This document shows positions 21,723 through 56,233 of a stretch of 64,000 nt of DNA, one piece after another (position 1 is the first letter of the stretch; each line of letters begins with the position of its first letter). The stretch is from IMG/VR virus record IMGVR_UViG_3300042401_001180. One strand, written 5' to 3'. The position numbers and the translations under genes are program-made. A model generated the notes under the pieces. That model searched no databases. It saw only the letters and a list, made by a program, of their open reading frames with translations, and was not told the DNA's origin. Source of the DNA: a virus. Lineage: Duplodnaviria > Heunggongvirae > Uroviricota > Caudoviricetes.

Positions 21723-24700
21723 TTATACGTCATCAAAAGACGCTCCCGTAGGTGTGATAACAAACTCAATATCAATGTATTCTAACGCTCTAGTCGGTTT
21801 TAAGAAAATCTTACCTGTTAAAGTGTTTGAATCTAAATCTTCAGGAGTATTTGAAACCGATACACGGAAATCAATTAAACCTCTATCTCTTCTAATTGAA
21901 TCCAATATTGGGTTAACAGAATCTAAAAAGTCTTGTCTCACCTTTTGATCGTTTTGTTCAAACAATAATCTAATTGCTACTGCTGAAATCAATTTACGAG
22001 CTTGTAATAACAACCTTCTAACGTTGATTCTATCAAGAGCGGATTCTTTAATTTGCATTGTTTTGTTACCCCAAATTACTGTACCCACATCAGAGAAAGT
22101 AGCAATTGGATTAATTCTACCTTTATATAACGTATCCCTATCGTCTTGTGTTAACTTACGTCTCGCTCTAATTGCGTTAACTAAACCTCTTGTGTAACCT
22201 GCAGATGCGAACCAAGGGAACGCAATGTTATCGGTTAATGCTAAATTCTTAACAACTTCTGATGTTGGTGGAATATAGATTTGTGTATTGTTAACGGCAT
22301 CTCTTGTTAAAATCCAAGGGTAGTATGATGCGGTATAGTTAGAATCAATACCCGTTGCTTCTAAGTTATCAACTACTCGTTGTGGATAAATAAGTCCCTC
22401 TTCAATATCGTTGTATGACGGTAAGTATAAATCAAAATCAGGTGTTGTACAGATATAAATTGAATCCGCTCTATCCGTTTCAATCATATCAATAGCCTCC
22501 TCAACCAAATTTGAGTTGTTCACATAGTCAATTCCTGGTGTAGTAAATATGTTAATATTTGTTGCTTCAGGATTTGCAAATGTGTTTTGTCCCCATTTAT
22601 ATGCGTAATAGTCAGTATTAGCCCAATTTTCTTGGTTAGGTCCTGATATTGCTTTGAATGCTCCCCATCCTGTTGCGGTTGGGTATGTAATACTTGGTTC
22701 AGCACCATATTTAAAACCTGATTGTCCTAACGCATATTGATCTTCGTTTGTTCTATATTCTCTATATATGTCCCATCCATCAAATCCCCCGTAAGCCATT
22801 AAAGTAAACTTACGAGTGTTTAATCTATAGTAAGGACTAGACGTATCTGTTGGTTCAGAATTAAATGACCCAACACCAACCTCAAACGCTGATTGTCCTG
22901 ATGTTGCGTAACCATTAGCGATTGTTACTACAGTCGCTCCACTATCCATGTGGAATCCTTTAGTGATATATCCCCAATCCATACCAGTAGTATCGGTACC
23001 TAAATTAGCAGGTTTTTGTTTACCCTTATACTCAAAGAAATCATAATCAATTCCTGAAATGTTTGATATACCTAAATATGCCTTTCTTGGGTTTTCACCA
23101 CTTGATATTACAGGGTTGTCTCCACCATTAGAAGAACCAAAAGGAGGGTTATAAACAACGTCACCAGGTTTGAAATATTTAGTTTTATAAACTAAGTATG
23201 GTGGAGTTGCGTTAGCGTACTCTCTACTAATATACCCCTCAAATCCACAAGGAAGAGCATCTATTGGTGCTTCCTCACTCATTTCTAACATTATATATTT
23301 AGAATTAACTTTGTATTCTCCGTTTGATGTACCTATTTTATTAGCCACATAATTGTTTTGTGAAGGATCTAATGAACAATTAGTGAAACTTTCAATAACT
23401 CTTGGGTTTTGATCGGTATCATAAAAATCTCTTATGAACACATCAAAAGTACTTGAGTTAAAGGATATATTACCTATCGACATCTTTACAAGTCTGTTTG
23501 CTGCGTTTCCATCGGAAATTAAAACAAATTTAAATAACTTGTAAACTTTATTACCTCTAAGTTCTGAAACCAAAAACGGAGTTGCTGGTGTTTGATACTG
23601 CTCTAAATAGAATCCTATTGTATCGTCATCTAAAGATCTTGCTCCCGGCAAATCAACCAAATCACAATATAATCCTCTAACTTTTCCTGCTCTGTAACCC
23701 GTTGTTAAAAGACTTGTATATGTCTCCTCAACAAATAAAGGAACCTGAGTCCTATCTTTACCGAAGTTACTTCTTCCAAATACTTTAGAAATAAAGTTTT
23801 TGTCTGAAGACAACATTGATGTTTGAAATTCAAACACGTCACCGTCGGACGATACTCCTGAAATTGAGAATGGTAAATAAGGGTTTTTAGTCACCGCAGA
23901 ATATGAACCAGTACAAATCATTTGTACGTCCGTAACACCTGTTACTTCATAAGCGGGTCCTGACTGAGTTGAGTTATAATTAGAAATACCTCTTGATCTT
24001 AATGTTGCAACGACTAAATCATCGTAATCTAAGAATGGTGTACCTGAATAATTAGTATTATAGAAAACACAAGAACCTGAGAAGTTACCACTTGAACCTG
24101 TTAACGTACTTAGTGCTGTCCCAAAACCTTGTCCATTATATGAACTAATATCAGTAGTTGGGTTTTGTGAATAATTAAATAATGCGTAGTACCAAGCATC
24201 ATTAGTTGTTGCTGATAAATTAGCTAAAGATAAATTTACATTATTTACACCAAAAGATTCTGTGTATGCTGTAATTGTACCAGTACCATTTAATGTTGTA
24301 CCTGTAACTAAATTGAAGGTACCTCCACTTACTGTCCCCCAAAATAGTGCGGTAGAACCTGTGGATGGTAAAGCATTTGCAAATGCATTAACTTGATTTG
24401 ATATAAATACTCTTAAATCAGAATCAATAGTAGAAGTTCCTCCATTAAATTCTGTATATGTATTGTAAAAATTATTATTAACATTGATTGTACTTGGTAC
24501 TGTCATGTTGTAAATAATATTATCACTTGTACCTGTAGTCCCTGTAAATGTTAAAGTAGTTGAAGTAACTCCCGTTGCCGCAACTGTGGAAGGGTTAACG
24601 TTACCTATTGTTGTGATTGACCAAGATGGTCCTGCGTCGTATCCTGATAATCCTAATACTCTTGTTACAAAAAGTTGATTTGATTGTTGTAGGTATGACT

Positions 24701-24944
24701 TAGTAATATATGCTAATTCATATTTAGGTATTTGAGTGTTAACGAATTTTTCAGGACTTGTTCCACCAAAGTATACTTGGAACTCGTCAAAGTTCGTAAT
24801 AAATATTGGTTCAAAAGCTGGACCCTGAAGAGTTTCACCAACTATACCTAAAGTTGTTACACCTACACTTTGTGCAACAAAAGTTAAATCTCTTTCTGAA
24901 GTATAGACTCCAGGTGAAACGAAAACTTTGTTTGATGATGCCAT
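21723..24944 (-). CDS. Contractile tail sheath protein (gp18-like)
   Basis: FVSPGVYTSE N-terminus; PWFASAGYTRG, LYKGRINPI, WGNKT, RINVRRLL, FEQND, PTRALEYI. Confidence 0.95.
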   Translation of the reverse strand: MASSNKVFVSPGVYTSERDLTFVAQSVGVTTLGIVGETLQGPAFEPIFITNFDEFQVYFGGTSPEKFVNTQIPKYELAYITKSYLQQSNQLFVTRVLGLSGYDAGPSWSITTIGNVNPSTVAATGVTSTTLTFTGTTGTSDNIIYNMTVPSTINVNNNFYNTYTEFNGGTSTIDSDLRVFISNQVNAFANALPSTGSTALFWGTVSGGTFNLVTGTTLNGTGTITAYTESFGVNNVNLSLANLSATTNDAWYYALFNYSQNPTTDISSYNGQGFGTALSTLTGSSGNFSGSCVFYNTNYSGTPFLDYDDLVVATLRSRGISNYNSTQSGPAYEVTGVTDVQMICTGSYSAVTKNPYLPFSISGVSSDGDVFEFQTSMLSSDKNFISKVFGRSNFGKDRTQVPLFVEETYTSLLTTGYRAGKVRGLYCDLVDLPGARSLDDDTIGFYLEQYQTPATPFLVSELRGNKVYKLFKFVLISDGNAANRLVKMSIGNISFNSSTFDVFIRDFYDTDQNPRVIESFTNCSLDPSQNNYVANKIGTSNGEYKVNSKYIMLEMSEEAPIDALPCGFEGYISREYANATPPYLVYKTKYFKPGDVVYNPPFGSSNGGDNPVISSGENPRKAYLGISNISGIDYDFFEYKGKQKPANLGTDTTGMDWGYITKGFHMDSGATVVTIANGYATSGQSAFEVGVGSFNSEPTDTSSPYYRLNTRKFTLMAYGGFDGWDIYREYRTNEDQYALGQSGFKYGAEPSITYPTATGWGAFKAISGPNQENWANTDYYAYKWGQNTFANPEATNINIFTTPGIDYVNNSNLVEEAIDMIETDRADSIYICTTPDFDLYLPSYNDIEEGLIYPQRVVDNLEATGIDSNYTASYYPWILTRDAVNNTQIYIPPTSEVVKNLALTDNIAFPWFASAGYTRGLVNAIRARRKLTQDDRDTLYKGRINPIATFSDVGTVIWGNKTMQIKESALDRINVRRLLLQARKLISAVAIRLLFEQNDQKVRQDFLDSVNPILDSIRRDRGLIDFRVSVSNTPEDLDSNTLTGKIFLKPTRALEYIDIEFVITPTGASFDDV

Positions 24945-27466: not shown

Positions 27467-29233
27467 ATGGAAGAATTAATTTCAAAGACACCCGAAACAA
27501 GGGCTCTTCAACTATTAGACGAATATGAAGGGTCGAATAACTATATCTTGGCGTTAAAACACAAAAAACAAAATAGTAAATCATTTACACCAACAAGGTC
27601 TCAGGCAGAGTATATAATTAACTTTCATGGACGAACACCAAAAGTTGCAAAAAAATGGGTTAAGTTAGACACATATTTTGGTAAAAAGATGATGGAAGAT
27701 AAGATGTACACAAAAGAACCAACAGAAATATACGTTGAAAAACTTTTGGTTGAGAAGGATAAATCTTACCATATATGGGGTAAGGTGTTCAGTGGTGAAA
27801 CTATTCACGATTTTTGGTTACCAAAATCTGCAATTATTAAAGACAATGAAGTTAAAAATGTTGTTGTAGATTATACGAAATACGAACACAGACTTCCAAT
27901 GGAACACCAAAAAGAAGCAATTACTAAGTTAGTTGGTAACAAAAAATTCATATTGGCTGATGATATGGGATTGGGTAAGACTACCAGTACAATTATCGCC
28001 GCTCTTGAAACAGGTGCAAAAAAAATATTAGTAGTTTGTCCCGCATCTTTAAAAATTAATTGGCAACGTGAAATTGAAAATTATTCAGATAGAACCATAT
28101 ATATTGCAGAAGGTAAGAAATTTTCAAATGAACATGATTTTGTTATAATAAATTACGACATATTAAAAAACTTCCATGATCCAAAAAAGGGTGACGAATC
28201 AACAATTTTAAATGCAAAGTTTGATTTAGTAATTATGGATGAAGCACATATGATATCTAATCCGCAGGCTCAAAGAACAAAAATAGTTAATGATATTTGT
28301 GATAAGGTTGAAAGGGTTTGGTTATTAACAGGAACCCCGATGACATCACGACCAATGAATTACTATAATCTTTTAAGTTTAGTTGAGAGTCCTGTGGCAT
28401 CTAATTGGATGGCTTATGCGAGAAGGTACTGTAATGGGTTTCAGTTTAGTGTAGGAAAAAGAAAAGTATGGAATGTTACTGGAGCATCTAACTTAGATGA
28501 GTTAAGAGAAAGAACGCAATCTCATATTTTACGAAGATTAAAAGATGAGGTTTTAGATTTACCCGATAAAATTATTACTCCCGTTTATTTGAGATTGAAA
28601 TCTAAAGACTATGAAGAACTCATGGGTGAATACTATGATTGGTACGATAAAAACCCTGATGAATCAGGATCATTGACAATTCAATTTGGTAAATTGATGA
28701 AAGTTAGAAAGATTATTGCCGAAGAGAAAGTTAAAAACACTATTGAATTAGCTGAAAATATAATTGAACAAGGAAAAAAAGTTATCATATTTACTAATTT
28801 TACAGATACCTTACGAACCATTTATAATCATTTTGGAAAATCTGCCGTTTATTTAGATGGTTCTTGTTCAAAACCTCATCGACAAAAATCTGTGGACGAC
28901 TTTCAAGAAAATGACAAAATTAAAGTCTTTGTTGGTAACTTAAAGGCGGCAGGGGTTGGTATTACTTTAACTTCTGCAGAAGCGGTAATAATGAATGACT
29001 TATCATTTGTTCCTGCAGAACATGCACAAGCAGAAGACAGATCACATAGAATCGGACAAAAAAACTCAACCTCTGTTTATTACCCGTTATTTGAAAACAC
29101 TATAGAGGGGGCAATCTATGACATCTTAAATAGAAAGAAAAAAATCATATCAACCGTCATGGGAGACGACTTGATGATTGATGATGCATCATCAATAGAA
29201 GAAATGTTAAAAATGATTTCTAAAGATAGGTGA
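27467..29233 (+). CDS. SNF2-family (SF2) helicase / annealing-helicase-like ATPase
   Basis: LADDMGLGKT, VVCPASLKINW, DEAH, LTGTP, GVGITLT, QAEDRSHRIGQ. Confidence 0.92.
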   Translation: MEELISKTPETRALQLLDEYEGSNNYILALKHKKQNSKSFTPTRSQAEYIINFHGRTPKVAKKWVKLDTYFGKKMMEDKMYTKEPTEIYVEKLLVEKDKSYHIWGKVFSGETIHDFWLPKSAIIKDNEVKNVVVDYTKYEHRLPMEHQKEAITKLVGNKKFILADDMGLGKTTSTIIAALETGAKKILVVCPASLKINWQREIENYSDRTIYIAEGKKFSNEHDFVIINYDILKNFHDPKKGDESTILNAKFDLVIMDEAHMISNPQAQRTKIVNDICDKVERVWLLTGTPMTSRPMNYYNLLSLVESPVASNWMAYARRYCNGFQFSVGKRKVWNVTGASNLDELRERTQSHILRRLKDEVLDLPDKIITPVYLRLKSKDYEELMGEYYDWYDKNPDESGSLTIQFGKLMKVRKIIAEEKVKNTIELAENIIEQGKKVIIFTNFTDTLRTIYNHFGKSAVYLDGSCSKPHRQKSVDDFQENDKIKVFVGNLKAAGVGITLTSAEAVIMNDLSFVPAEHAQAEDRSHRIGQKNSTSVYYPLFENTIEGAIYDILNRKKKIISTVMGDDLMIDDASSIEEMLKMISKDR

Positions 29234-29244
29234 TATTTATCAAT

Positions 29245-29955
29245 ATGATATTTGATAAAATAAATAAAAAAATAAATCTATTAGAGTCTGAAATCTTATT
29301 GGAGTCCCCATTTAATCGTAAAATTATTTCGGAAATAAAAAAAATAAGCATAGAAAAATTACCCTATGATTATGATTCTTTAAGTACATTCATAGATGAC
29401 GAGACTATGAAAACCCACTACACTAAACACTATAAGGGGTATGTTGAAAAATTAAATCTTGAGTTAGAGAAAGTATCAGGTAAAGATATGGACATAGAAG
29501 AAATAATAAAAAAAATATCAAGATTTAATAAAAAAGTTAAAAACAATGGGGGTGGTGCGTTTAATCATGCATTATTTTGGAAAATGTTAACACCTAAAAA
29601 AACAACCCTTAAAAATCCATTATTGTTTAAGATTGAAAAAACTTTCGATTCTTTCGAGTTATTTAAATATAAGTTTGAAGAGGTTGCAAAAACTAGATTT
29701 GGTTCAGGTTGGGTATGGTTAATATTAACTAAAAATAATACATTAAAAATTGTAACAACACCAAACCAAGATAACCCATTAATGGATACTGAAAAAAATG
29801 GGGGTTACCCGTTACTTGGTTTAGATATATGGGAACACGCATATTATTTAAAATATAAAAACGAAAGAGATAAGTATATTCATAACTTTTGGAAAGTTGT
29901 AAATTGGGATTTTGTTTGTGATGTATATGTATCGCAAACAAAAAAGAAGTCTTAA
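29245..29955 (+). CDS. sodA: Mn/Fe superoxide dismutase with an N-terminal extension
   Basis: LPYDY, HYTKH, NGGGAFNHALFW, FGSGWVWL, NQDNP, DIWEHAYY: all four metal ligands present. GGG plus NQD suggests Mn-type. ATG at 29245 preferred over GTG at 29230. Confidence 0.9.
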   Translation: MIFDKINKKINLLESEILLESPFNRKIISEIKKISIEKLPYDYDSLSTFIDDETMKTHYTKHYKGYVEKLNLELEKVSGKDMDIEEIIKKISRFNKKVKNNGGGAFNHALFWKMLTPKKTTLKNPLLFKIEKTFDSFELFKYKFEEVAKTRFGSGWVWLILTKNNTLKIVTTPNQDNPLMDTEKNGGYPLLGLDIWEHAYYLKYKNERDKYIHNFWKVVNWDFVCDVYVSQTKKKS

Positions 29956-34443: not shown

Positions 34444-34797
34444 TCAAATGATATTGATATATAAATTTTGTACTATTGGAGCAATTAACTCACCGTTTTC
34501 TAATACGATTGAAAATTCTCCGATGAATCTTCCCTTTTTATTTGTGTCTCTTGCCAACCATTTATAGTAGATATAATACTCACGATTAGAATCGGGATTT
34601 GTTCTTGTTTTTTCTGTTATGTATGCTGGTCGCATAAATATTTTTTGAATTCCGTTATCTTCACTTTTCATTGAAAATCGGATGTTTGCATTATCTAAAA
34701 TTTCATAAAAGTTTTTCCACGAATCAGTTCTTCCGTCTTTTATAACGTCCATTTTTAAAATGGGTAAACTTGCATTTTGTTTTATAAAAAATTCCAT
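34444..34797 (-). CDS. Hypothetical structural protein (BppU N-terminal-like beta sandwich)
   Basis: FFIKQNASLP.L...IYYKW...DT...GRFIGEFSI...LIAP pattern recalls baseplate/fibre adaptor domains. Confidence 0.5.
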   Translation of the reverse strand: MEFFIKQNASLPILKMDVIKDGRTDSWKNFYEILDNANIRFSMKSEDNGIQKIFMRPAYITEKTRTNPDSNREYYIYYKWLARDTNKKGRFIGEFSIVLENGELIAPIVQNLYINII

Positions 34798-34838
34798 ATA
34801 TTAAATATTAACAATCGTATTGACAAGTTATTATACCA

Positions 34839-35879
34839 TTAATAAACATAACTAGTTAACCCACTAAGATATGTGGATGTTAAATCAACCCAAGTACCAC
34901 CAGTTATGTTCGGTGTTAATTTTAAAAATTCATCTATTTGAGCATATGCTTGATATCCGTAATCGGTATTAATAAAATTACCACTACAAAAATATACATC
35001 ATTAATTGTATGTGCACTAACTATAGCATTTAAATTATTATAAATAAAATCTCTGGCATTTTGTGTTATTGCCGATGTTGCAGTAACCATTTGTTGTCCT
35101 GATGTTTGACCTGTAAGTGTACTTTTAAAGGGCCAAACAATTTCCAATAACTTATAGAATTCATAATCGTTTGATCCTGAGTAACTACTAATTTGAGGTG
35201 CCGAGGTTAACCCTGTAACCGTATCAATTGCTCCTCTAACCGCTCCACAAGTACTTGAAGGAAACGCCTGACCTTTACGATATATTTCACCAACACCACC
35301 AGAAAAAGAAATACCAATGTGAGGTGTACTTGAAATAAATAAAGTACCTCCCGATGTTACGTGACTTGCCCATGCATTTAAACCTGCGGTACCAACAAAA
35401 GGAAACCCCGCCAATCCACCAGACATAAATGGACCTAAAAACACATTCATTGTTGACGGGAAATTACCAATGTTTTGTATTCCCGGAAATGATGGTGCAT
35501 CAACATCATCGGAACATATACCTTCAGCATAAACAATATCATTAACATTAGTCCCTGTAGTTACAGGATACCCTTCAGACGCTAAAAAATTAACGGTATA
35601 TGACCCCCATTTTTCAACAAGTGTAGCTCCTGTGTATGTAATGTTTACGGTATTGGTATATGCGGATTGTTGAGGTGCCGGTAATGGAATAGTAAGACTA
35701 TACGTGTAATTATAATCATTTATTAAAATTTGATACTCACCATATGGGTATTCTGTCAAGTAATTAAAAGGTAATGTTTTTGTACCTAAATTAATTGTTC
35801 CCCCTGACACGGGTAAAAAAGTGACACTTCCGGTTTTACCGACTAAATTATTACTTGAAATTCTTGTTCCTATTGCCAT
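34839..35879 (-). CDS. LCIB/LCIC-type beta-carbonic anhydrase domain fused to a small N-terminal beta-rich domain
   Basis: ICSDD...FMSGGLAGFPFVGTAGLNAWASHV...TPHIGIS.SGGVGEIYRKGQ...STCGAV matches the LCIB family pattern, including the Cys/His/Cys zinc triad. Confidence 0.78.
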   Translation of the reverse strand: MAIGTRISSNNLVGKTGSVTFLPVSGGTINLGTKTLPFNYLTEYPYGEYQILINDYNYTYSLTIPLPAPQQSAYTNTVNITYTGATLVEKWGSYTVNFLASEGYPVTTGTNVNDIVYAEGICSDDVDAPSFPGIQNIGNFPSTMNVFLGPFMSGGLAGFPFVGTAGLNAWASHVTSGGTLFISSTPHIGISFSGGVGEIYRKGQAFPSSTCGAVRGAIDTVTGLTSAPQISSYSGSNDYEFYKLLEIVWPFKSTLTGQTSGQQMVTATSAITQNARDFIYNNLNAIVSAHTINDVYFCSGNFINTDYGYQAYAQIDEFLKLTPNITGGTWVDLTSTYLSGLTSYVY

Positions 35880-35921
35880 ATCTAATATTTTTATTTAATA
35901 AATATCATCATGTTTATAAGT

Positions 35922-38042
35922 TTATATTAAAAATGAATAATTAGTATCATTAAATGGTAAATACAAATAAATTAAACCATTATTTGGTATGGTAGTATTA
36001 TATAAATTATTGTTTGGTATATTTGAGTAGGCTAAAGAATTATCAAGTAATGGTGAATAATATAAATTATTGTTTGGTATAGTTGAGTAAGTTAAAGAAT
36101 TATCGTTTAACGGAGTATAAAATAAATTATTATTTGGTATCATTTGATAATTAAAAGAATATAGGGGTAAGCAATCAGGACACCAAAAATCAAATAGATT
36201 AAATTTGTTTTTTAATACCCTAAAGTTATGTTGCACTTGTGGAGAACTTAAAGGTTCAACATACATTCTAAATTGCGATATACCACCCATAAAAGTCCCA
36301 CCAAAATTTTGTTCCAATAAAATGTTTGTTGATAGTCCTGAAAGTGTTGTTGCTGATAAAATATTATTTGGGAATAATTCAGGATCTTGAGTGTAAGGAC
36401 CATTTGGTAATGAACAACCTGAAAAAATCAAATGGTCGTGTAGCCCTTGTGTCCCACCACCAAACGATAAGTTAAAAGGTACCCCTACTTGTTTTTCTTT
36501 TTCTGTATTTAATTCTCTCGGTATGATCTCTTCAAAGTCTTCTATAACTAAAAACAAATAACCATTAACATATAGTTTTAATGTTCCTAACCTATAATCT
36601 AATTCATCAAACCATTTCCTATCAAAACGTATTTTGTGAATTTTTCTTTCGGGTGTTGATCCTGGATGTGTTTCAGGAGGAGATATTAAATTTATTGATC
36701 TACCATCTATTGATGATTGTGTCGTAATAACTCTTAAATCATTTAACCCACCAAGATTTAATAAATCACACTCTTCTATTGTTTTATATCTTTCAAAGAC
36801 CGCACTTATCATTACCCATCTTTCCTCATCGGTATCACCACACTCTAAATTACAAATATCATAAATTGGTGGTGTACAATATTCACTAATTGTATAACCT
36901 GTTTGAAATGTTACTCCCGTTGTTTCACAATACCCTGTAGTTACACAATCACCAGTTATTTTGATGTATCTAACACAAAGACTTGGATTTTCAGGACAAC
37001 CACTAAACTTTAACGACATCGCATTAGATAAAACGTCAAATTTTGGGTCTGTTTCTGGCAGCGGTACGTTTACTGTACTCACACAACCACAATTACAAGA
37101 ATTATCGTGTATGGTTTTAGAGCCAGTATCGGGATATACTTTCACACAATCAGAATTTGTAACGGCAGTATTAGAACAACCACATGTTTCAATACAACTT
37201 AAATCCCCTGTAACCCTTGTATATCCGCTATCTGACTGTGGAGAACCTGTTGCACTATGATAAAATTTATTTTCAGCCCTTGTACCGAAGTAAAAAAAAG
37301 TACCCGCATTAGAGGGGTATTTGTCGTTCAAGTACTCTTGAGTTGCACTATTAATAAAATATTCGTCCGTTATTCTAGGTTTTAAAACCATTTCGGCAGT
37401 CCACCCTTTATTTACCCTTTCAGGAAAAACTTCGTAATCATATCCATTTAATTTATAAAACCCTTGATAAAATCCTCCATAAAGTTCTTGATAATAACCA
37501 ATAGTGTCCGCACTTTTTGAAACAATGTTATATATAGTTTCTTTAGGTCTTCCTGAAAATCTTACGTTTGGCGAATTTACCAAACTTCTAACGGGATGCA
37601 TTTTGAACCTACTATCTCTATAATGTGGATTAAATTTGTAGTTATCGTCAATACCTTTAATATAATATAATGTTTGTCCCGTTAGTCCTGTAAATAATCC
37701 GTTATCAGTAGCAACTAAACCCACGTCACAAATTCCTGTGTATGCAGTATAACAACTAAAATCTAAATTTTTTGGGTTATAATGGTTAGAAGAAACTAAA
37801 GTATTAGACGGTATGTAATCCCCAAAAGCTATATTTGATTGTAAAGTATTACCTGAATTGTCTAATTGTATTGATATGGGAAGTCTGTTTCCATCATTAA
37901 TACCAATAACGTGTGTTGAAAAAACAACTTCTTCATCATAGTCCCTCTCATCTGAAGCCAAAGTTAAATCAAAATATTGTCCATAATTCAATTTTGATTG
38001 GTATCTTGGGTAATAATAACTATTTAAATTCTGACTAGGCAT
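35922..38042 (-). CDS. Cys-rich putative virion protein with a LamG/ConA-like region and C-terminal 20-aa repeats
   Basis: LKLYVNG...SFGGG...FMGGISQFRMY.EPLS..QV..N is LamG-like. IPNNNL.Y.PL.DNSL.YS repeats lie near 35970-36140. Confidence 0.6.
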   Translation of the reverse strand: MPSQNLNSYYYPRYQSKLNYGQYFDLTLASDERDYDEEVVFSTHVIGINDGNRLPISIQLDNSGNTLQSNIAFGDYIPSNTLVSSNHYNPKNLDFSCYTAYTGICDVGLVATDNGLFTGLTGQTLYYIKGIDDNYKFNPHYRDSRFKMHPVRSLVNSPNVRFSGRPKETIYNIVSKSADTIGYYQELYGGFYQGFYKLNGYDYEVFPERVNKGWTAEMVLKPRITDEYFINSATQEYLNDKYPSNAGTFFYFGTRAENKFYHSATGSPQSDSGYTRVTGDLSCIETCGCSNTAVTNSDCVKVYPDTGSKTIHDNSCNCGCVSTVNVPLPETDPKFDVLSNAMSLKFSGCPENPSLCVRYIKITGDCVTTGYCETTGVTFQTGYTISEYCTPPIYDICNLECGDTDEERWVMISAVFERYKTIEECDLLNLGGLNDLRVITTQSSIDGRSINLISPPETHPGSTPERKIHKIRFDRKWFDELDYRLGTLKLYVNGYLFLVIEDFEEIIPRELNTEKEKQVGVPFNLSFGGGTQGLHDHLIFSGCSLPNGPYTQDPELFPNNILSATTLSGLSTNILLEQNFGGTFMGGISQFRMYVEPLSSPQVQHNFRVLKNKFNLFDFWCPDCLPLYSFNYQMIPNNNLFYTPLNDNSLTYSTIPNNNLYYSPLLDNSLAYSNIPNNNLYNTTIPNNGLIYLYLPFNDTNYSFLI

Positions 38043-40688: not shown

Positions 40689-41903
40689 ATGAACAAAATT
40701 AAAGTATTAGTATTACCATCCGATAGAACAGGTGTTGGAAAATTTAGAAGTATCGACCCACACGTTTGTTTACAAAATAACCATTCAGATGAATTTCATG
40801 TGGATATAGAATATGAACCAAAAGTGGATGACATAAATTATTGGAAACAATATCAAATTGTACATTTTCATAGAAGTATTGGGCAAGATTATGATAAATC
40901 TGTTAATCTAATCCAAACACTAAATAGTATTGGTATTATTACTATAATGGACCTTGACGACTATTGGTTACCAACAAAGGAACATCCCGTACATCAATTG
41001 ATTGTTCAAAACAATATACATAAAAAAATTATTGAAAACTTAAAAGTTGCGTCGTATGTAACCACAACTACAACAGTTTTTGCTAACGAAATGATGAAGT
41101 TTAATAAGAACGTTTTTGTTTTACCAAACGCAATTAACCCAAATGAACCTCAATTTAAATACGAGACATCACCTTCAGATAAGTTACGTTTTGGATGGTT
41201 AGGAGGATCTTCACATTTACACGATTTAAAACTATTAGACGGGACAATCTCCAAACTAAGTACACACAAAGATAAATTTAGTATGTATCTTTGTGGTTTT
41301 GATACTAGAGGTACGGTAACAGAAATAAATCAACAAACAGGAGAACAAAAACAAAGAGATATAAAACCTGAAGAAACGGTTTGGGCAAGATATGAAGAGA
41401 TATTCACAAATAAATATGGAATGGTTGACCCAAAACATAAAGAATTTCTTATGAAATTTAAAGAAGAAGAATATATTTCAAACACTTTACCATTTTATAA
41501 TCGTGTTTGGACAAAACCTGTTACAAGTTACGCATCAAATTATAGATTATTTGATGTTTCTTTAGCACCAATTAAAAACCATATCTTTAATAAAGTTAAG
41601 TCACAATTAAAAGTTATTGAGGCAGGATTTTATAAAAAGGCTATAATTGCGTCTAATATTGGACCATATACTATCGATTTAAAACACTCATTAAAAAATG
41701 GTGAATTTACTGATGGTAACGCACTTTTAGTTGATGAAGCAAGAAACCACAGTGATTGGGCAAAATATATGAAAAAACTAATCGATAACCCTAATTTTGC
41801 ATATGACTTAGGACAAAGATTATATGAGACAGTGAAAGACACGTACGATTTAAATAAAGTGACTGCCGATAGGGCGAGTCTATATAAATCCTTAATAAAA
41901 TGA
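40689..41903 (+). CDS. Glycosyltransferase, GT-B fold (GT4-like)
   Basis: DLDDYW, VLPNAI, FGWLGGSSHLHDL, DVSLAPI...FNKVKSQLKVIEAG...IIASNIGPY. Confidence 0.85.
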   Translation: MNKIKVLVLPSDRTGVGKFRSIDPHVCLQNNHSDEFHVDIEYEPKVDDINYWKQYQIVHFHRSIGQDYDKSVNLIQTLNSIGIITIMDLDDYWLPTKEHPVHQLIVQNNIHKKIIENLKVASYVTTTTTVFANEMMKFNKNVFVLPNAINPNEPQFKYETSPSDKLRFGWLGGSSHLHDLKLLDGTISKLSTHKDKFSMYLCGFDTRGTVTEINQQTGEQKQRDIKPEETVWARYEEIFTNKYGMVDPKHKEFLMKFKEEEYISNTLPFYNRVWTKPVTSYASNYRLFDVSLAPIKNHIFNKVKSQLKVIEAGFYKKAIIASNIGPYTIDLKHSLKNGEFTDGNALLVDEARNHSDWAKYMKKLIDNPNFAYDLGQRLYETVKDTYDLNKVTADRASLYKSLIK

Positions 41904-42631
41904 TAAACATACCCATTACAAAAATTTTATTCCTTGACATTGAAACTGTCGGGGGATGTCCTGATTATGAATCTTGCCAAAAGTTTAGTCCTGAAATTGC
42001 CAATCAGTATGTTAAATATTATGATTGGTTTAAAAAAAGATTTCCTGAGGACCACATTGAGTCACCAAGAACAAAAATAGAATCCGAGAAAAGAATGCAT
42101 GAAGTTTTTATAAAACGAGCAGCATTAGTTCCTGAATTTGCAAAAATTGTTTGTGTTTCTATGGCGTTTGTTATGGATAACGGTGAAGTTAAAAAACAAA
42201 CATTTTCAGGAGACGACGAAAAAGAATTACTAATACAAGTAAGAAATCTTTTAGATAGATGCCATAAATTAGATTTCTATTTATGTGGACACAACCTTAA
42301 GAATTTTGATATCCCTATGTTGGCAAAAAGAATGATAATAAACGGAATTTTACCGTCTAAGTTATTACCATCTTACGACACGAAGCCTTGGGAGGTGAAA
42401 GCCATTGATACAAAAGAAATTTGGCAATACGGTTCTTACACGTCAATAGGTTCCTTAGATTTGGTTTGCTCCACAATGGGAATACCAACACCAAAAGACG
42501 GAGAAATAACAGGAGATAAGGTACATCACGCGTATTGGGTTGAACAAAAATTACCTCAGATTGCTGAGTATTGTGAAAAAGATGTTGATGTGTTAGTTGA
42601 ATTTATAAAACAATTAAAAGATTTAAAATAA
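41900..42631 (+). CDS. DEDD 3'-5' exonuclease (PolB-exonuclease-like, stand-alone)
   Basis: LFLDIET, GHNLKNFDIP, YCEKDV. Confidence 0.85.
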   Translation: MINIPITKILFLDIETVGGCPDYESCQKFSPEIANQYVKYYDWFKKRFPEDHIESPRTKIESEKRMHEVFIKRAALVPEFAKIVCVSMAFVMDNGEVKKQTFSGDDEKELLIQVRNLLDRCHKLDFYLCGHNLKNFDIPMLAKRMIINGILPSKLLPSYDTKPWEVKAIDTKEIWQYGSYTSIGSLDLVCSTMGIPTPKDGEITGDKVHHAYWVEQKLPQIAEYCEKDVDVLVEFIKQLKDLK

Positions 42632-43242
42632 TGTTTGGAAAATTAAAAGAAATGAAAGAACAGATGGACATGTTAAATAGTCTTCAATCTACTGTTGGTG
42701 AAGTTGATATGTCAAATCCTGAATCCATGTTAGAATCAATGGGAATTAATGTGGAGGACATTGAAAACCATTTTAATCAAATTAATTTTAATGGGGAATT
42801 TGAAAAAATACCTTTAAATTTTATTAATGATTCTGAAAATAGTGATCCTGAGTATGCTTACGAATCCGATTCGGGATTTGATTTAAGATCAACAGAAGAT
42901 ATTTGGGTACAGGCAAATGATAGAAAACTAATACCTACAGGACTTAGATTTGACATCCCTTTAGGTTATGAGATACAAGTAAGATCTAAAAGTGGGTTGG
43001 CTCTAAATCAAGGATTAATGGTTTTAAATTCTCCAGGTACAGTAGATAGTGGGTATCAGGGAGAAATAAAAGTAATCATATTTAATACCACTAAAGATAG
43101 GATTAAAATAGAAAAAGGACAAAAAATTGCACAAGCGGTTTTATGTCCCGTTTTAAACGGTAAATGGGTTGATTTAGTTAAAGTGGAATCTATACAAGAA
43201 AAAGATAGAAATGATAAAGGTTTTGGATCAACTGGTTTATGA
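42631..43242 (+). CDS. dut: Trimeric dUTPase with an N-terminal extension of about 55 aa
   Basis: SGFDL, RSKSGLA, PGTVDSGYQGE, KIAQAV, RNDKGFGSTG. Confidence 0.95.
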   Translation: MFGKLKEMKEQMDMLNSLQSTVGEVDMSNPESMLESMGINVEDIENHFNQINFNGEFEKIPLNFINDSENSDPEYAYESDSGFDLRSTEDIWVQANDRKLIPTGLRFDIPLGYEIQVRSKSGLALNQGLMVLNSPGTVDSGYQGEIKVIIFNTTKDRIKIEKGQKIAQAVLCPVLNGKWVDLVKVESIQEKDRNDKGFGSTGL

Positions 43243-44705
43243 TAACAATAGGATTTTCAACTAGACAAGATAATCAAAAATATGTTGATTATCTTAAAAA
43301 AACTTCAGGATTAAAAGATGTTGAGGTAATACAAAAAATTAATAATGGGGATAAAAGCCTATCTCAAGTTTATAATGATATATTAACTGAATCTAAATAC
43401 GATACAGTCGTATTATGTCACGATGATATTGAATTTGATACTCGGCCGTGGGGTAAACGAATTATAAAACATTTTACAAATACCGACTTTGGGATACTTG
43501 GGGTTGCCGGTACCACTGATATGCCTGAAAGTGGTATGTGGTGGGAAGACAAAAGAAAGATGATAGGAATCGTTAACCATAAACATGAAGGTAAAAAATG
43601 GGAATCAAAATATTCTAAGAGTTGGGGGGACGACGTAACCCAATCCTGTCTTGTTGATGGTTTATTCATAGCTATAAATAAAAAATTAATCTCTGAAAAT
43701 TTTGATGAGTCCGTGAATGGATTTCATTTTTATGACATACAATTTTGTATTAATAACTTTTTAAAGGGGGTTAAAATTGGGGTAATATATAATATAAGGT
43801 TGACACATTTATCTATTGGTCAAACAAATGAAAAATGGGAAGAAAATAGATTAATTTTTTCGGAAAAATTTAAACAACATTTACCCATTAAATCTAACAT
43901 TAATTTAGATTATAACCAGAGTAAGGAATTCAAACATATAAAAAAATATAATCTAAGGATAGTAATTAATAGTGGAAAAAATATACAGTGGGTTAAAGAT
44001 ATTATAACCAAAATAGAATCATTCAACATACCAAACTACAAAATAAACTTAATTAGTAATGAAGAAATTAGTGAGGATATTAAAAAATTAAGTAACGATA
44101 ATATTATCATATATGATGGGTTTTTTGATGAGTTATCTAAAAACCTATCAATTTTAAAATGGGGAGATGGGTTTATAGAAAAAGAGGATACGTTAATATT
44201 TTTTATAGATAAGGACGTTAAAATACTTAACAACGTATTTTCTTCTGTTTGTAAATTACATCACACAGAAAAAAGTAATTTCGGGTGTGCGTTTCCAGCA
44301 ACATTAAATGATGATATGACAATATTATCAACAGAGTTTAATTTATTTAAAAATAAAGAAAATCAGTTTAATTTATTATTAAAAGATAACGGATCGTATT
44401 ATAATTTAATAAGTGGACATAAATCAAATAAAATGGGTAACCTATCCGACGTATTTGTTACCACTTATAATAATTTAGTGAATAACGATTGGTTTGATAT
44501 ACAATACGAAACAAATTTAACGTTTAATGACTTCGCATTAAAGTGTGTGTCTAAAAACCAAAAATGTTTTATCGATGCTGACAGTATATCAACTCAAAAC
44601 ACTTTTAGTAATAGTGAAACACTAAATCAGGATATGAACAAATTTGTTCAGACATTAATGTCTAACCAAAAATATCAATCTTTAATACAAACAATAGATG
44701 GTTAA
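43239..44705 (+). CDS. Two-domain GT-A glycosyltransferase-like protein
   Basis: SLSQVYN, VLCHDDI, GILGVAG, VDGLFIA, FDE...FHFYD; the second domain looks like a degenerate GT-A. Confidence 0.75.
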   Translation: MITIGFSTRQDNQKYVDYLKKTSGLKDVEVIQKINNGDKSLSQVYNDILTESKYDTVVLCHDDIEFDTRPWGKRIIKHFTNTDFGILGVAGTTDMPESGMWWEDKRKMIGIVNHKHEGKKWESKYSKSWGDDVTQSCLVDGLFIAINKKLISENFDESVNGFHFYDIQFCINNFLKGVKIGVIYNIRLTHLSIGQTNEKWEENRLIFSEKFKQHLPIKSNINLDYNQSKEFKHIKKYNLRIVINSGKNIQWVKDIITKIESFNIPNYKINLISNEEISEDIKKLSNDNIIIYDGFFDELSKNLSILKWGDGFIEKEDTLIFFIDKDVKILNNVFSSVCKLHHTEKSNFGCAFPATLNDDMTILSTEFNLFKNKENQFNLLLKDNGSYYNLISGHKSNKMGNLSDVFVTTYNNLVNNDWFDIQYETNLTFNDFALKCVSKNQKCFIDADSISTQNTFSNSETLNQDMNKFVQTLMSNQKYQSLIQTIDG

Positions 44706-45480
44706 AATAGTTTCAGGTTATTCAGATAAGGGAGGATCAACAACGGCATTTATCAACTTAACTAATTTTTTCAATGAAAATGGAATTGAGTGTACTTTTT
44801 ATGGTCCACATGAATGGCATTTGAATAAGTGTAAATCAGGACTACTAAAAGATGTTATATATGATAAGGAAGATAATGTTATATTCCATTTTTTAGATTT
44901 AAAGGAAAGACCGAATATAAAAAAATCAATATTATCTTGTCATGAAAAATGGTGGTTCCCTGTTGGAAAAATTAAACAGTATTGGGACGAAGTTGTGTTT
45001 TTACATAACCAACATAGAGAATATCATGGGGATTATAATGGGAAATTTGTTATTATACCAAACCTAAAAGAGGATTTAAAACTTTCAGATAAAACATTAG
45101 TTTCTAATGTTGCTGGAATTATTGGTACAATAGAAGAAAGAAAACAAACCCACGTATCAATACAAAGAGCACTAAAAGATAAATGTGAAAAAATTTATTT
45201 ATTTGGTCATATTGGGGATGAAAAATACTTTAATAGTTATGTTAAACCCTTATTATTACCTAAAGTAATACAATACGGGCACACAACTAATAAACAAGAA
45301 ATGTATGATATGATCGGTAAGGTATATCACTCATCTAAAGGTGAGGTTGCTTGTTTAGTAAAAGACGAATGTTATTTGACAAATACAGAATTTTATGGTA
45401 ATGAAGAAACAGAAAATGAAGTTTCTAAATTAACAAATGATGAGGTATTAAATTTATGGAAAAATTTGTTTGAATTATGA
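44698..45480 (+). CDS. Glycosyltransferase, GT-B-like
   Basis: GGSTTA, SCHE, IIPN, IIGTIEERKQ, YHSSKGEVACLVKDEC (EX7E-like). Confidence 0.7.
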   Translation: MVKIVSGYSDKGGSTTAFINLTNFFNENGIECTFYGPHEWHLNKCKSGLLKDVIYDKEDNVIFHFLDLKERPNIKKSILSCHEKWWFPVGKIKQYWDEVVFLHNQHREYHGDYNGKFVIIPNLKEDLKLSDKTLVSNVAGIIGTIEERKQTHVSIQRALKDKCEKIYLFGHIGDEKYFNSYVKPLLLPKVIQYGHTTNKQEMYDMIGKVYHSSKGEVACLVKDECYLTNTEFYGNEETENEVSKLTNDEVLNLWKNLFEL

Positions 45481-46022
45481 AAAAAATATTTATAGACGGG
45501 GGGGCGAGAATTGGGGAGTCAATTGATGTACTATTAGAAACAAGAAAAGATTTAATCGGATGTGATGTGTATCTTTTTGAATGTAACCCATCCCACATTG
45601 AAACATTAAATGATATTTCAAACAATAATAAAAAATACAATTTTATCGTGAAGAATGAGGCGATATGGGTAGAAGAAACTAATAAAGATTTTTTTATATC
45701 TATTGATTATTGGGGGGATTTGGGTTGTACTCTATTACCTGAAAAAACAGAAAAATTAGATAGGGAAAATCCGGTAAATGTAAAATGTATAGATTTTGCC
45801 AACTTTATAAATTCTTTTATGGATGATGATTATTTAGTGGTTAAACTTGATATTGAGGGAGCTGAGTATGACGTGTTAAATCACTTAATTAACACTAACT
45901 CAATTACTAAAATAAATGAACTTTATGTTGAGTTCCACGATCATTTCTTTAACAGAAACTCTGAAAACATAAAAAATAGATTATCAAACTATAATATTAA
46001 ATGTAATTTTGAATGGATGTAA
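45477..46022 (+). CDS. FkbM-family SAM methyltransferase
   Basis: FIDGGARIG, FECNP, VKLDIEGAEY, VEFH. Confidence 0.85.
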   Translation: MKKIFIDGGARIGESIDVLLETRKDLIGCDVYLFECNPSHIETLNDISNNNKKYNFIVKNEAIWVEETNKDFFISIDYWGDLGCTLLPEKTEKLDRENPVNVKCIDFANFINSFMDDDYLVVKLDIEGAEYDVLNHLINTNSITKINELYVEFHDHFFNRNSENIKNRLSNYNIKCNFEWM

Positions 46023-46024
46023 AT

Positions 46025-46747
46025 ATGAAGATACACGCACACATATTATCATGGAATGAAGAAAAAATACTTCCATTTACTCTTGATTATTATTCTACAT
46101 TTTGTGAAGAGATTTATATACACGATAATATGTCCACAGATTCATCTGATGAGATATATAAAAAGTACCCAAAAGTGAAGGTATTAAAATGGGATAGTGA
46201 TAATCAGATAAATGAAATGAATTATATAAATTTAAAAAATAACGAATATAAAAAACACAGTAGAGATAAAGGTGTTGATTGGGTTATTGTTTGTGATTGC
46301 GATGAATTTTTATATCATCCTAATTTAATGGATATTCTACAAGATTATAAGGAAAATGGTATTACAGTACCAAGAGTTTGTGGACACGACATGGTAAGTG
46401 AAAACTTTCCAAATTATGACGGTAAATTAATCACAGAAAAGATAAAAGTAGGATCAGAAAGGTATCAACCTATGTGTAAGAACATCATATTTAATCCTAA
46501 TGTAGATGTTAGTTTCGGTGTTGGTGCACATAGTTTTTCATCCACTAATGGTGTATTTTCTGAAAACGAAGATTTAAAATTATTACACTATAAATTTTTG
46601 GGTAAGAACTACGTTAAAAAACTATACGTGGATAGGGCTAAAAGACTGTCGACTTTTAATAAACAAAATAAGTTTGGGGAACATTACTTTAATTTACCTT
46701 TTAAATATATGGATGAAGTGTTAAGTAAAAAACAAGAAGTCATATGA
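46025..46747 (+). CDS. Glycosyltransferase family 2-like
   Basis: WNEEKILP, HDNMSTD, WVIVCDCDEF, LLHYK. Start placed at the ATG just after the upstream stop. Confidence 0.8.
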   Translation: MKIHAHILSWNEEKILPFTLDYYSTFCEEIYIHDNMSTDSSDEIYKKYPKVKVLKWDSDNQINEMNYINLKNNEYKKHSRDKGVDWVIVCDCDEFLYHPNLMDILQDYKENGITVPRVCGHDMVSENFPNYDGKLITEKIKVGSERYQPMCKNIIFNPNVDVSFGVGAHSFSSTNGVFSENEDLKLLHYKFLGKNYVKKLYVDRAKRLSTFNKQNKFGEHYFNLPFKYMDEVLSKKQEVI

Positions 46748-47571
46748 GAAAAATATTAATTTCAGATTTTACAACAAAAGAAGCGCCTCATGGCGGATCA
46801 GAATGGGTAAATCAAGTTTTAATTGAACAATTAGGGTTAGAATTTGAGCATTCACAAAACGTACAATCATTTGATTCAAATACTTTTTATATCATATCTA
46901 ATATATCATTAATGAATCCGTCGTTGGTTCGTCAAATCCCTAATTTAAATTATATAATAATAGAAAACGATTATAAAATTTGTCCGTCAAGACATCCTTG
47001 GCGTTACCCTGATAACATCATACCATTAAGTGATAGAATCAATTACGACTTATATAGTAATGCGAAAGCGGTTTTTGTTCAAACTACAGACCACATGAAT
47101 GTTTATTTAAAAAATGATGTTAAAGCTAATTTTATAAATTTAGAATGTTCAATATGGTCAGATTCGGATATTAAATTATTAAACGAGTTATCAGAAAAAA
47201 ATAAAATAAAAAACGGTAAATACGGAATCTATTACACAAATAACTGGATTAAAAACACACAAGGTAATTTAAAATATTGTAGTGAAAATAAATTACCATT
47301 TTCAGTCATTAAAGAAAGTAATAATAGAGTTGAGTTTTTAGAATCATTATCAAAATGTGAGGGAATCGTTTTTTACCCTTTAGCTAGAGAAACGTTTTGT
47401 AGGTTAGTTGTAGAGGCTAAATGTATGGGACTTAAAGTAATAACTTCAAAAAATTATGGAGCATCTTTAGAGTCATGGTTTGATGAATTATCAGGAAAAG
47501 AATTAATAAATTTTCTTAAAATTAAAACAGAAGAAAATATAAATAAAATAAAAAATTATATAAAATTATGA
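46744..47571 (+). CDS. Glycosyltransferase, GT-B-like
   Basis: HGGSE N-terminus and ETFCRLVVEAKCMG (EX7E). Confidence 0.7.
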   Translation: MRKILISDFTTKEAPHGGSEWVNQVLIEQLGLEFEHSQNVQSFDSNTFYIISNISLMNPSLVRQIPNLNYIIIENDYKICPSRHPWRYPDNIIPLSDRINYDLYSNAKAVFVQTTDHMNVYLKNDVKANFINLECSIWSDSDIKLLNELSEKNKIKNGKYGIYYTNNWIKNTQGNLKYCSENKLPFSVIKESNNRVEFLESLSKCEGIVFYPLARETFCRLVVEAKCMGLKVITSKNYGASLESWFDELSGKELINFLKIKTEENINKIKNYIKL

Positions 47572-48182
47572 TTTTAAACGATTTATCCGAAAATATTTAC
47601 GTAATTAACTTACCTGAAAGAATGGATAGGAAAACCCATATTGTCAATCAATTATCAAACGTTGGTTGTGTTGATTATATTATTTTTCCCGGAGTTAACG
47701 GTAATGTAGAGAATAACCCGACAAGACTTAAAAATGGTATGTATGGATTAATAAAAACTTATTTAAACATTTATGAAGAATGGAAAAATAAAAAAACAGG
47801 TACAATAACCATAATTGAAGATGACTGTGTATTTGTTGATGGATTTAATGATAAGTCAATAATCTTTTATGAAAACGTGCCGAGTGATTGGGAAATGTTG
47901 TATTTTGGTGCGAACCATAATGGAGAAACGACTAAAAAAATAAATGAAAATTGTATAAAGTTAAGTTATTCATTTACTGCTCATTGTGTAATTCTAAAAG
48001 ACTATGTTTTTGAACATTTAATTTCACAAATAAAAAATTTTACAATTGAAAATGATGTGGTTATGGCTAATTTTCAACAACAATATAACGCTTATTGCTC
48101 AATAGATGCGTTAGCCACCCAAATTCCAAATTTTTCAAATATAGAAAATTGTTTTGTAAACTATGAACGTTGGATAAAATAA
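47568..48182 (+). CDS. Glycosyltransferase family 25-like
   Basis: YVINLPERMDR, IIEDD, WEMLYFG, TAHC. Confidence 0.8.
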   Translation: MILNDLSENIYVINLPERMDRKTHIVNQLSNVGCVDYIIFPGVNGNVENNPTRLKNGMYGLIKTYLNIYEEWKNKKTGTITIIEDDCVFVDGFNDKSIIFYENVPSDWEMLYFGANHNGETTKKINENCIKLSYSFTAHCVILKDYVFEHLISQIKNFTIENDVVMANFQQQYNAYCSIDALATQIPNFSNIENCFVNYERWIK

Positions 48183-49018
48183 TTATGGTTAATTTTATAT
48201 CTACCGCATATATTATGGGTGGACTTGGTAATCAAATGTTCCAAGTGGCTCACGCGGTATGTCAAGGATTTAAAAATAAAAAACCGTCTGTTTTTGAACC
48301 AATTACTTTCACACCTATGGGGCAATCAAAACCAATTACAAACTATATGGATAATATTTTTAGAAATATTTCATTTACTGACAATATAAAAGACAAAAAA
48401 AATGTTTATGAGCAGACTTGGAATGAACCTAAACTTAATTTTTTATGGGATAATAATATAGAGTTTTACGGGTACTTCCAAAGTAGCAAAAACTTTTTTG
48501 GGTATGATAAAGAAATGCAAATTCTTTTTGAACCTACAGAACAATTTATACAATATATAAATAATAAATTTGAAGATTTAAAAAATAAAAGGACAACATC
48601 AATACACATCAGAAGGGGGGATTACTTAACAATCAACAACATATTACCTACATTACACATATCTTATTTTAAAAAGTGTATAGATGAATTAGAAAAAGAT
48701 ACTGATATTTTTTTTGTTTTTAGTGACGATATGGAATGGGTAAAAAATAACATAAAACATGAAAAAATTATTTATGTAAATAACAATAAAGATTATGAAG
48801 ATTTATGGATGATAAGTTTGTGTAATAACAATATAATGTCAAACTCATCTTTTTCTTGGTGGGGTTCATTTTTAAACAAAAATAAAAATAAAAGAGTGTT
48901 ATGTCCAAATATTTGGTTTGGACCAAACGGACCAAACCCTTATGATAATGTTTACGTTGGTGATTGGATTAAAATAAAAGTTAAATATGAAAATGGGGAA
49001 TTAAAATATGAAGAATAA
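48170..49018 (+). CDS. GT11 alpha-1,2-fucosyl/colitosyltransferase
   Basis: GGLGNQMFQ, GYFQS, SIHIRRGDY, FSDD, NSSFSWWG. Confidence 0.92.
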   Translation: MDKIIMVNFISTAYIMGGLGNQMFQVAHAVCQGFKNKKPSVFEPITFTPMGQSKPITNYMDNIFRNISFTDNIKDKKNVYEQTWNEPKLNFLWDNNIEFYGYFQSSKNFFGYDKEMQILFEPTEQFIQYINNKFEDLKNKRTTSIHIRRGDYLTINNILPTLHISYFKKCIDELEKDTDIFFVFSDDMEWVKNNIKHEKIIYVNNNKDYEDLWMISLCNNNIMSNSSFSWWGSFLNKNKNKRVLCPNIWFGPNGPNPYDNVYVGDWIKIKVKYENGELKYEE

Positions 49019-53506: not shown

Positions 53507-53509
53507 AAT

Positions 53510-55159: not shown

Positions 55160-55162
55160 AAA

Positions 55163-56227: not shown

Positions 56228-56233
56228 AAAATT

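Follow-up and report, generated by a model that had tools for sequence, protein, structure and literature searches.

A phage gene joining an Ig-like module to an LCIB-type carbonic anhydrase, with predicted display on the virion

Why would a tailed phage carry a carbonic anhydrase (CA) between structural-looking genes, and where would such an enzyme act? The window, by which we mean the whole stretch of 64,000 nucleotides that was analyzed, comes from an uncultured T4-like myovirus, large and AT-rich, and encodes sheath, tube and baseplate proteins, PolB, SOD and a long glycosylation island. On its minus strand, positions 34839-35879 encode a protein of 346 amino acids made up of an Ig-like N-terminal module, a proline linker and an LCIB/theta CA domain. 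The ORF, strand, length and motifs given in an initial annotation of this DNA were all recovered in the translation, with PLPAP at residues 65-69, CSDD at 122-125, GGLAGFPFVGTAGLNAWASH at 154-173, PHIGI at 186-190, GGVGEIYRKGQ at 193-203 and TCGA at 210-213. That annotation had placed the CA signature at residues ~115-230; the motifs do lie there, but the homology spans residues ~71-343. A 1406-nt contig from a separate metagenome run (X4, one of four runs from 2024 lake-water metagenomes that may represent one campaign) showed no difference across the whole CA ORF, indicating that the ORF is not an assembly artefact.

The CA domain (residues ~71-343; 34851-35669, minus strand) was assigned from sequence and fold matches. 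Pfam PF18599 matched residues 110-317 with an E-value of 1.6e-32 and 113.1 bits (gathering cut-off 25), covering profile positions 20-218 of 223, and all eight matches in a PDB sequence search were LCIB-family chains, the identity to the closest known members being about 21%. A first structure model, built on 38 phage rows and of low confidence at residues 130-162, gave a VIA Z of 23.6 to 5b5y (rmsd 2.4 over 230 residues). A second model, covering residues 67-346 and built on 78 phage and cellular rows, reached a pLDDT of 94.6 and a pTM of 0.92, and the stretch that was poorly resolved in the first model became confident (pLDDT blocks of 95-98). Foldseek matched this second model to 5b5y with an E-value of 1.2e-16 and to 6kfs with a TM of 0.76 (0.70-0.76 by query); classic beta-CAs were far weaker matches (E 7e-4). 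The LCIB/beta-CA family proposed earlier therefore stands, since the HMM search against LCIB_C_CA and the structural comparison that had been suggested as checks both returned it. The algal framing of that proposal was right about the family and too narrow in scope, for the bacterial homologues that we found were mostly single-domain proteins of Bacteroidota.

The zinc site of LCIB proteins consists of two Cys and one His, according to PMC5876011. Taking residue roles from PDB mutant chains and reviews, we located the corresponding positions on the minus strand of the window. CSDD (35505-35516), which aligns to LCSDE of 5b5y, holds the predicted Zn ligand Cys122, Ser123 (equivalent to PtLCIB4 S47) and Asp124; the Ser123 column is Arg in the S47R mutant PDB chain. 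His173 (35361-35363), the equivalent of PtLCIB4 H88, shares its alignment column with the Ala of mutant chain 5b5z (H88A). His187 (35319-35321), invariant in our alignment A1, and Cys211 (35247-35249) are the other two predicted Zn ligands, and C122, D124, H187 and C211 all align with residues of 5b5y and 6kfs. Among 199 distinct phage-type sequences, Cys122 was kept in 197, Asp124, Asn136, His187 and Cys211 in 198 each, and His173 and Arg201 in all; Arg201 is a candidate counterpart of LCIB Arg194. The five residues C122, D124, H173, H187 and C211 occurred together in 197 of the 199, and the two exceptions were a divergent protein and an ORF cut at a contig end. The Cys-His-Cys site claimed earlier is thus present, alignable to known structures and nearly invariant. 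With family, fold and site residues intact, the protein is likely to be an active CO2 hydratase, catalysis being predicted. Three purified LCIB homologues with intact fold and zinc motif are reported to be without activity (PMC5876011).

How the domain reached phages can be approached from its relatives. There were 274 CA relatives at E <= 0.001 (90% clustering), and two IMG/VR profile scans gave their best 80 loci each, which partly overlap. Among INPHARED phages there was no match to the CA or to a conserved 491-aa protein encoded beside baseplate-like genes (61933-63408, plus strand), PHROGs held no family for either, and single-protein scans of viral_contigs found nothing. CBM96 on the 491-aa protein, present in 14% of its members, is a lead. 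Phage-type CA copies formed one branch with an SH support of 100 and a stem of 1.04-1.09 in trees of 108 and 50 rows; both are FastTree trees without a root test, and the unlabelled P0263 falls inside the phage clade in the larger one. A scan seeded with the nearest non-phage matches returned, as its best 80 GTDB loci (L261-L340), mostly Bacteroidota by title. A Bestrophin_2 gene lay upstream of the LCIB homologue in 65 of these 80 loci, within 150 nt and on the same strand in 56, an arrangement consistent with a part for the bacterial homologue in cellular bicarbonate handling. An Ion_trans_2 gene was also often nearby (32 of the 80 loci), and the pairing of bestrophin with LCIB in these loci is a bacterial echo of the algal pair of bestrophin and theta-CA.

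The host is likely a member of Bacteroidota, because all five related phage records carry bS21, a mark of freshwater phages predicted to infect Bacteroidetes; the window itself is without a bS21 gene. Since the bacterial homologues are mostly from Bacteroidota and the phage relatives bear the bS21 mark, the CA likely entered phages in one capture of a bacterial LCIB gene, probably from Bacteroidota, and then spread among unrelated freshwater phages.

The long stem bears on what the enzyme now does. In phage copies CSDD is followed by an insertion that is missing from cellular ones, and this phage-only insertion could alter the substrate. It is conceivable that the protein is displayed but is no longer mainly a CO2 hydratase, its Zn pocket instead binding an anionic host surface group or hydrolyzing an ester, COS or CS2, so that it would serve as an adhesin or a capsule-modifying enzyme. 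The insertion beside the site, the near-invariant Asn136 and the stem length all agree with such a change, as do the weak physical benefit of a free-floating CA and the exchange, described below, of the CA with genes bearing fibre-like, lectin or DUF285 domains, which are binding proteins. COS and CS2 hydrolases also share the fold, although only at a VIA Z of 5.7-5.9 versus 23.6 for 5b5y. Against this, no LCIB catalytic position has been lost, the H88 and S47 equivalents and Arg201 among them, and the fold is nearest to active diatom enzymes and not to COS or CS2 hydrolases. We regard this alternative as unlikely and retain CO2 hydration as the predicted activity.

Is the gene under selection, or is it carried along neutrally, or decaying, in a region of frequent recombination? 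The dN/dS was 0.19 for the CA domain and 0.23 for the N-terminal module, values obtained from 116 non-independent pairs of 358-aa alleles of 17 relatives, a set outside which the window gene lies. The CA domain is under purifying selection. The gene occupies a slot on the minus strand whose left border is an upstream 706-aa gene (35922-38042), likely an outer structural protein (six [ST]G.T words against 0.64 expected; TATTTAT at -18) with no Pfam or PHROG match, and whose right border is a downstream 117-aa gene (34444-34797), which relatives extend with Pro/Thr stalks and LamG domains. Among the 80 best PolB relatives there were 41 complete slots, none of which held the CA; 18 were empty and 23 held other genes, mostly fibre-like, LamG-bearing or module-bearing (5 module-bearing). 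No CA was seen in loci L081-L240, nor in any of five whole related records, one of them 99% complete. Locus L026, whose PolB is 99% identical to that of the window over the first 330 residues, has a CA that is only 48% identical, and the DNA homology of the window to L026 and L081 starts at 34798-34809, just beyond the CA stop. Judged by this distribution, the CA gene is an optional accessory that is gained and lost as a cassette. Its absence from all 41 complete slots and from the five whole records is what a remnant would predict, but the dN/dS, the catalytic set complete in 197 of 199 sequences and the 274 relatives largely refute that explanation, which we hold to be scarcely credible.

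The slot region has further features. An IPNNNL-Y-type C-terminal repeat is common to the 706-aa protein (37900-38042, minus strand), module-bearing proteins and extended 117-aa proteins (L007, L021 and L005), and the C-terminal domain of the 706-aa and 117-aa families appeared papain-like by eye (CVGYAW, GGHAY, NSWG; L042:277-1563 and L043:4469-6301). A 223-aa gene occurs in the variable region of L028, L031, L037, L155 and L159; it encodes pirin in L037 and a near copy in L155, and a different, fibre-like protein in L159, so that pirin is another enzyme amid fibre-like genes.

We compared the composition of the CA protein with that of its neighbours. It contains 9.2% KERD residues (protein P0001), the lowest charge among the window ORFs of at least 90 aa, where PolB has 29.9%, SOD 30.9% and the sheath 17.3%. 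Phage-type CA domains averaged 12.7% (n=49) versus 20.2% for cellular ones (n=120); four members of the phage clade (P0117, P0244, P0260 and P0292) showed a cell-like charge of 22-26%, and P0292 is without the Zn ligands. The CA also carries seven [ST]G.T words where 0.96 would be expected (1000 shuffles, p 0.001), and in the model each of them falls in a loop or at the end of a helix; the sheath carries seven against 1.7, bearing out the sheath-like richness that had been noticed before. Elsewhere in the window a significant excess was found only in the sheath and in the 2319-, 706- and 491-aa proteins (four against 0.55 in the last). Regions 21723-24944, 3176-10135, 35922-38042 and 61933-63408, which show the excess, are likely to encode outer structural proteins. 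In related loci, the observed/expected ratio was 5.7 for the CA family, 4.1 for the sheath and 9.0 for the 491-aa protein, versus 0.4 for SOD and 0.1 for the adaptor; PolB (2.1), helicase (2.2) and two small non-structural or unplaced families (5-7) were also raised, at low counts (<1 word per protein).

This word differs among phage lineages. CA domains of bS21-type phages had 132 [ST]G.T words versus 26 expected and 21 [ST]GS versus 23 expected, whereas the five CA domains of myovirus group 2 had 11 [ST]GS versus 2.6 and one [ST]G.T versus 2.4; low-charge proteins of that group (L051-L061) favoured [ST]GS in the same way, 97 versus 25. The [ST]GS word was picked after inspection of the data, and the sequences compared are related to one another. 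In crAss-like CA domains neither word was enriched. In the bS21-type and group 2 phages, by these counts, the CA domain carries the word of its own lineage's low-charge proteins. Judging from the nearby glycosyltransferase island, the [ST]GxT words are candidate glycosylation sites of a virion sugar coat. The island (40689-57792, plus strand) encodes GT1, GT2, GT10, GT11 and GT25 glycosyltransferases, an FkbM methyltransferase, a GDP-mannose dehydratase, an epimerase and a DegT aminotransferase, and the same stretch additionally encodes PhoH, a dUTPase and an exonuclease.

Expression timing was examined through the motif TATTTAT, which lies at 35898-35904 (minus strand), 25 nt ahead of the CA ATG, exactly where the initial annotation had put it. 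It precedes 14 of the 55 window ORFs and, in related loci, 100% of 68 sheath genes, 95% of 96 adaptor genes and 1% of 96 PolB genes, a distribution that makes a late role likely; it precedes 44% of 39 CA genes. The [ST]G.T excess tracked the motif (170/639 versus 48/1169 across 1808 ORFs taken from related loci). Both the likely late motif and the structural setting described earlier were found, but since TATTTAT also precedes SOD (78% in related loci), it has no bearing on virion location. In the window, the Fe/Mn SOD (29230-29955, plus strand) sits behind the motif; in relatives the length of this protein varies between 250 and 958 aa, and its additional domains are unannotated (for example, L040:16665-19538).

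The company of SOD raises the explanation that the CA is a soluble late auxiliary metabolic gene (AMG), trapping respired CO2 as bicarbonate in the Bacteroidota cytoplasm for carboxylases, with the module incidental or serving as a tether to the assembly site. The same phages do place an enzyme behind TATTTAT, the bestrophin gene ahead of host-type homologues implies a cellular bicarbonate role, CAs appear among viral metabolic genes in print, and some members of the CA clade are highly charged or almost extension-free. However, the CA has half the charge seen in its cellular homologues and in every soluble enzyme that the window encodes, and the CA domain gained the outer-protein word that SOD did not. 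Charge and word signatures thus match outer structural proteins and not the late enzyme SOD, which favours display over a late AMG.

The N-terminal module (residues 1-66; 35682-35879, minus strand) is a likely virion anchor, as suggested by its model and by its reuse in relatives. The earlier description of a beta-rich segment of about 65 aa followed by a proline linker proved accurate: the model is a small Ig/FnIII-like beta-sandwich of seven strands, and PLPAP (35673-35687, minus strand) falls in a region that is Pro-rich in the module-bearing rows of alignment A1. VIA Z scores to Ig/FnIII domains were 5-6.4, which is middling for a common arrangement. The nearest Atlas models were phage hypothetical proteins (TM 0.72-0.81), an Atlas feature search with the module gave only scores below 0.8, and the module had no sequence match to a named family in Pfam or PHROGs. 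A type IX (T9SS) C-terminal sorting domain was considered and rejected, as the module is N-terminal and showed no hydrophobic leader by eye; the fold likeness is weak (Z 6.4, 10% identity; TM 0.58).

A search for reuse of the module on other cargo in the rest of the genome had been suggested as a check. No second copy was found in the 64-kb window, and reuse was seen only in relatives, where the module heads Pro/Thr stalks and LamG- (lectin) and DUF285-bearing proteins (best reversed decoy E 0.3) and is also encoded alone, in genes of 69-75 aa. CA-bearing records contained six copies (G006, 91% complete), three (G007) and one (G008), the single copy of G008 being the CA itself, and two CA-less records contained none. 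The 66-aa module is accordingly a candidate display tag.

The CA domain has also been mounted on proteins other than this module. In L022, L023, L062 and P0408-P0410 it sits, as an in-frame insertion, within a loop of a homologue of the 491-aa protein. In L056 and L058, which have a neck and sheath gene block, the CA N-terminus matches a 307-aa non-CA ORF (E 7e-28); in L341-L344 and L355 it matches an adjoining ORF of 67-89 aa (E 1e-16 to 1e-29), with a Gp23 gene near the CA in L342 and L344. A 45-aa segment of the CA of L363-L388 recurs on Thr-stalk ORFs (E down to 1e-12). A similar 45-aa segment is found on the CA of crAss-like phages, beside the capsid gene, and a loose search of five crAss-like records showed it nowhere outside the CA. 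A C-terminal extension of the CA is common to non-CA ORFs as well (best E 1.6e-6 among 5216 ORFs, decoy 0.6); some apparent non-CA matches (L396-L400) are CA copies and were left out of the count. In L414 the CA directly follows the Gp23 capsid gene, its 81-aa extension having no non-CA match, and the same was true of the extensions of L377, L382, L401-L403, L405, L409 and L412-L419. Five second CA copies are nearly extension-free, and the neighbourhood of the CA in L377 and L402 is not clearly structural. As read from these matches, one phage CA clade has acquired at least six different kinds of extension, of which five also occur on non-enzyme proteins. Tandem CA gene pairs occur in L076, L080, L377, L382, L402, L403 and L409; the first copy has a long N-terminal extension and the second has 7-18 extra residues, a possible LCIB/LCIC-like heterodimer.

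These joins weigh further against a soluble AMG, since parts of non-enzyme proteins were the partners repeatedly, and in one case the domain lies within a conserved protein of the baseplate region. The feeding of carbamoyl phosphate synthesis, through a link to a carbamoyltransferase, was rejected: the 557-aa neighbour found in 36 of 80 loci is HtrL/YibB, PF16861 was absent from the CA-bearing G006 (91%) and G010 (100%), and carbamoyltransferase domains were seen only in L055. The lack of a carbamoyltransferase in these two near-complete genomes is another point against the soluble AMG, which we consider quite unlikely. L055 is a single case, in which a carbamoyltransferase fused to HtrL/YibB lies directly upstream of the CA gene (L055:6628-9897).

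In crAss-like and Gp23 phages the CA adjoins major capsid genes, and this position, together with the likely late motif on the gene, would also suit an internal head cargo that is ejected with the DNA and acts early in the next host. However, the other cargos of the module are stalks and lectins, fitting the exterior, the word enrichment follows sheath-like proteins and not the head-tail adaptor, and a folded dimer would be hard to pass through a tail tube. We judge a head cargo to be very unlikely. Where the initial annotation had offered display or a late AMG, display is better supported than a plain late AMG: the module is reused, fibre-like genes take the CA's place in the slot, the domain was joined to other extensions several times, and the charge and word signatures point the same way.

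The reading that best accounts for the family and fold, the conserved and intact active-site residues, the purifying selection, the module reuse, the slot swapping and the outer-protein signatures is that the protein is an active CO2 hydratase displayed on the virion, its activity, location and benefit being predicted. We put the probability of this whole reading at roughly 55%; display taken by itself is probable, and CA activity taken by itself is predicted with good confidence. The CA gene would be transcribed late, and its product would load Zn in the cytoplasm, dimerise and dock through the Ig-like module on the exterior of the particle, on the capsid or the tail. The zinc site at the particle surface would then interconvert CO2 and bicarbonate. 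The weakest step is the benefit: where the particle meets an aggregate or a respiring Bacteroidota cell in alkaline lake water, released CO2 might be converted to bicarbonate and protons, and these may alter the micro-chemistry of adsorption or of the particle coat. By general reasoning, a CA does no more than hasten an equilibrium, and the few copies borne by a ~100-nm particle could hardly change the pH except within a confined gap, outside which diffusion would erase a surface CO2 effect. A bolder proposal, which we hold unlikely, is that T4-like huge myoviruses, crAss-like podoviruses and other unrelated freshwater phages share one virus-specific LCIB clade, whose members would have been moved onto at least five different virion anchors and given the surface word of each lineage, as a working particle enzyme that would couple adsorption to the CO2 output of live hosts.

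We know of no phage coat with a surface enzyme that handles inorganic carbon. A coat-borne CO2/bicarbonate enzyme, if true, would add a new class to the cargos of virions, and the infection of lake Bacteroidota would become linked to carbonate chemistry. The locus also carries a warning, in that a gene counted by pipelines as a carbon-metabolism AMG may be structural, and the low-charge, virus-only LCIB clade offers natural variants with which the difference between active and inactive LCIB proteins could be explored.

Among known systems, CA genes have been reported in giant viruses (PMC13037468, PMC12338748), in a temperate Nitrosospira phage (10.64898/2026.05.02.722434), in drinking-water viromes (K01673; 10.1101/2021.10.07.463401) and, as a carboxysome CA, in a sponge virome (PMC7863781). 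The portions of these reports at hand name no LCIB/theta class, fusion or virion display, and three leave the class unstated, so that the viral CAs already published are, as far as these texts go, of other or unstated classes. LCIB/theta classification follows PMC10096703 and PMC7215798; PMC7692377, judged from its available text, concerns bacteria. The earlier statement that no phage LCIB case had been described agrees with the literature searched, where none was found, although a supplement listing may exist. Freshwater huge phages encoding bS21, with predicted Bacteroidetes hosts and genomes of up to 331 kb, were described by Chen et al. 2022 (PMC9723584; the word 'carbonic' occurs 0 times in its main text and two of its supplements). 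Our related records share bS21 with them (5/5); the window does not include the gene.

The closest structural counterparts are PtLCIB4 (5b5y) and the LCIB_C_CA protein 6kfs, which share the fold, the Cys-x-Asp...His...Cys site and the H88 and S47 equivalents. The window protein differs from them in its ~21% identity, its place in a virus-only clade, its N-terminal Ig-like module, the insertion after CSDD, a C-terminal W..T..Y..GL helix, very low charge and [ST]GxT words, and its activity and dimer are only predicted. Chlamydomonas LCIB/LCIC (5k5w, 5b5x), of the same family, scored lower against the window protein and are reported to be inactive once purified (PMC5876011 and PMC10096703); their chloroplast CO2-concentrating role cannot apply to a phage CA. 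Bacterial LCIB homologues, mostly from Bacteroidota and encoded behind Bestrophin_2, have the same domain and site in the likely host phylum. Unlike the phage CA, they are proteins of 207-266 aa without an extension, with 22.6% charged residues (40 of the 80 loci scored), and they lie in a channel-gene operon. T4 Hoc-type Ig-like decoration proteins and enzyme-bearing tail spikes combine a small beta-sandwich anchor with exchangeable surface cargo, and their known cargos bind or cut surface polymers; to our knowledge, phage surface enzymes act on host polymers. Here, in contrast, the cargo is a small-molecule metalloenzyme.
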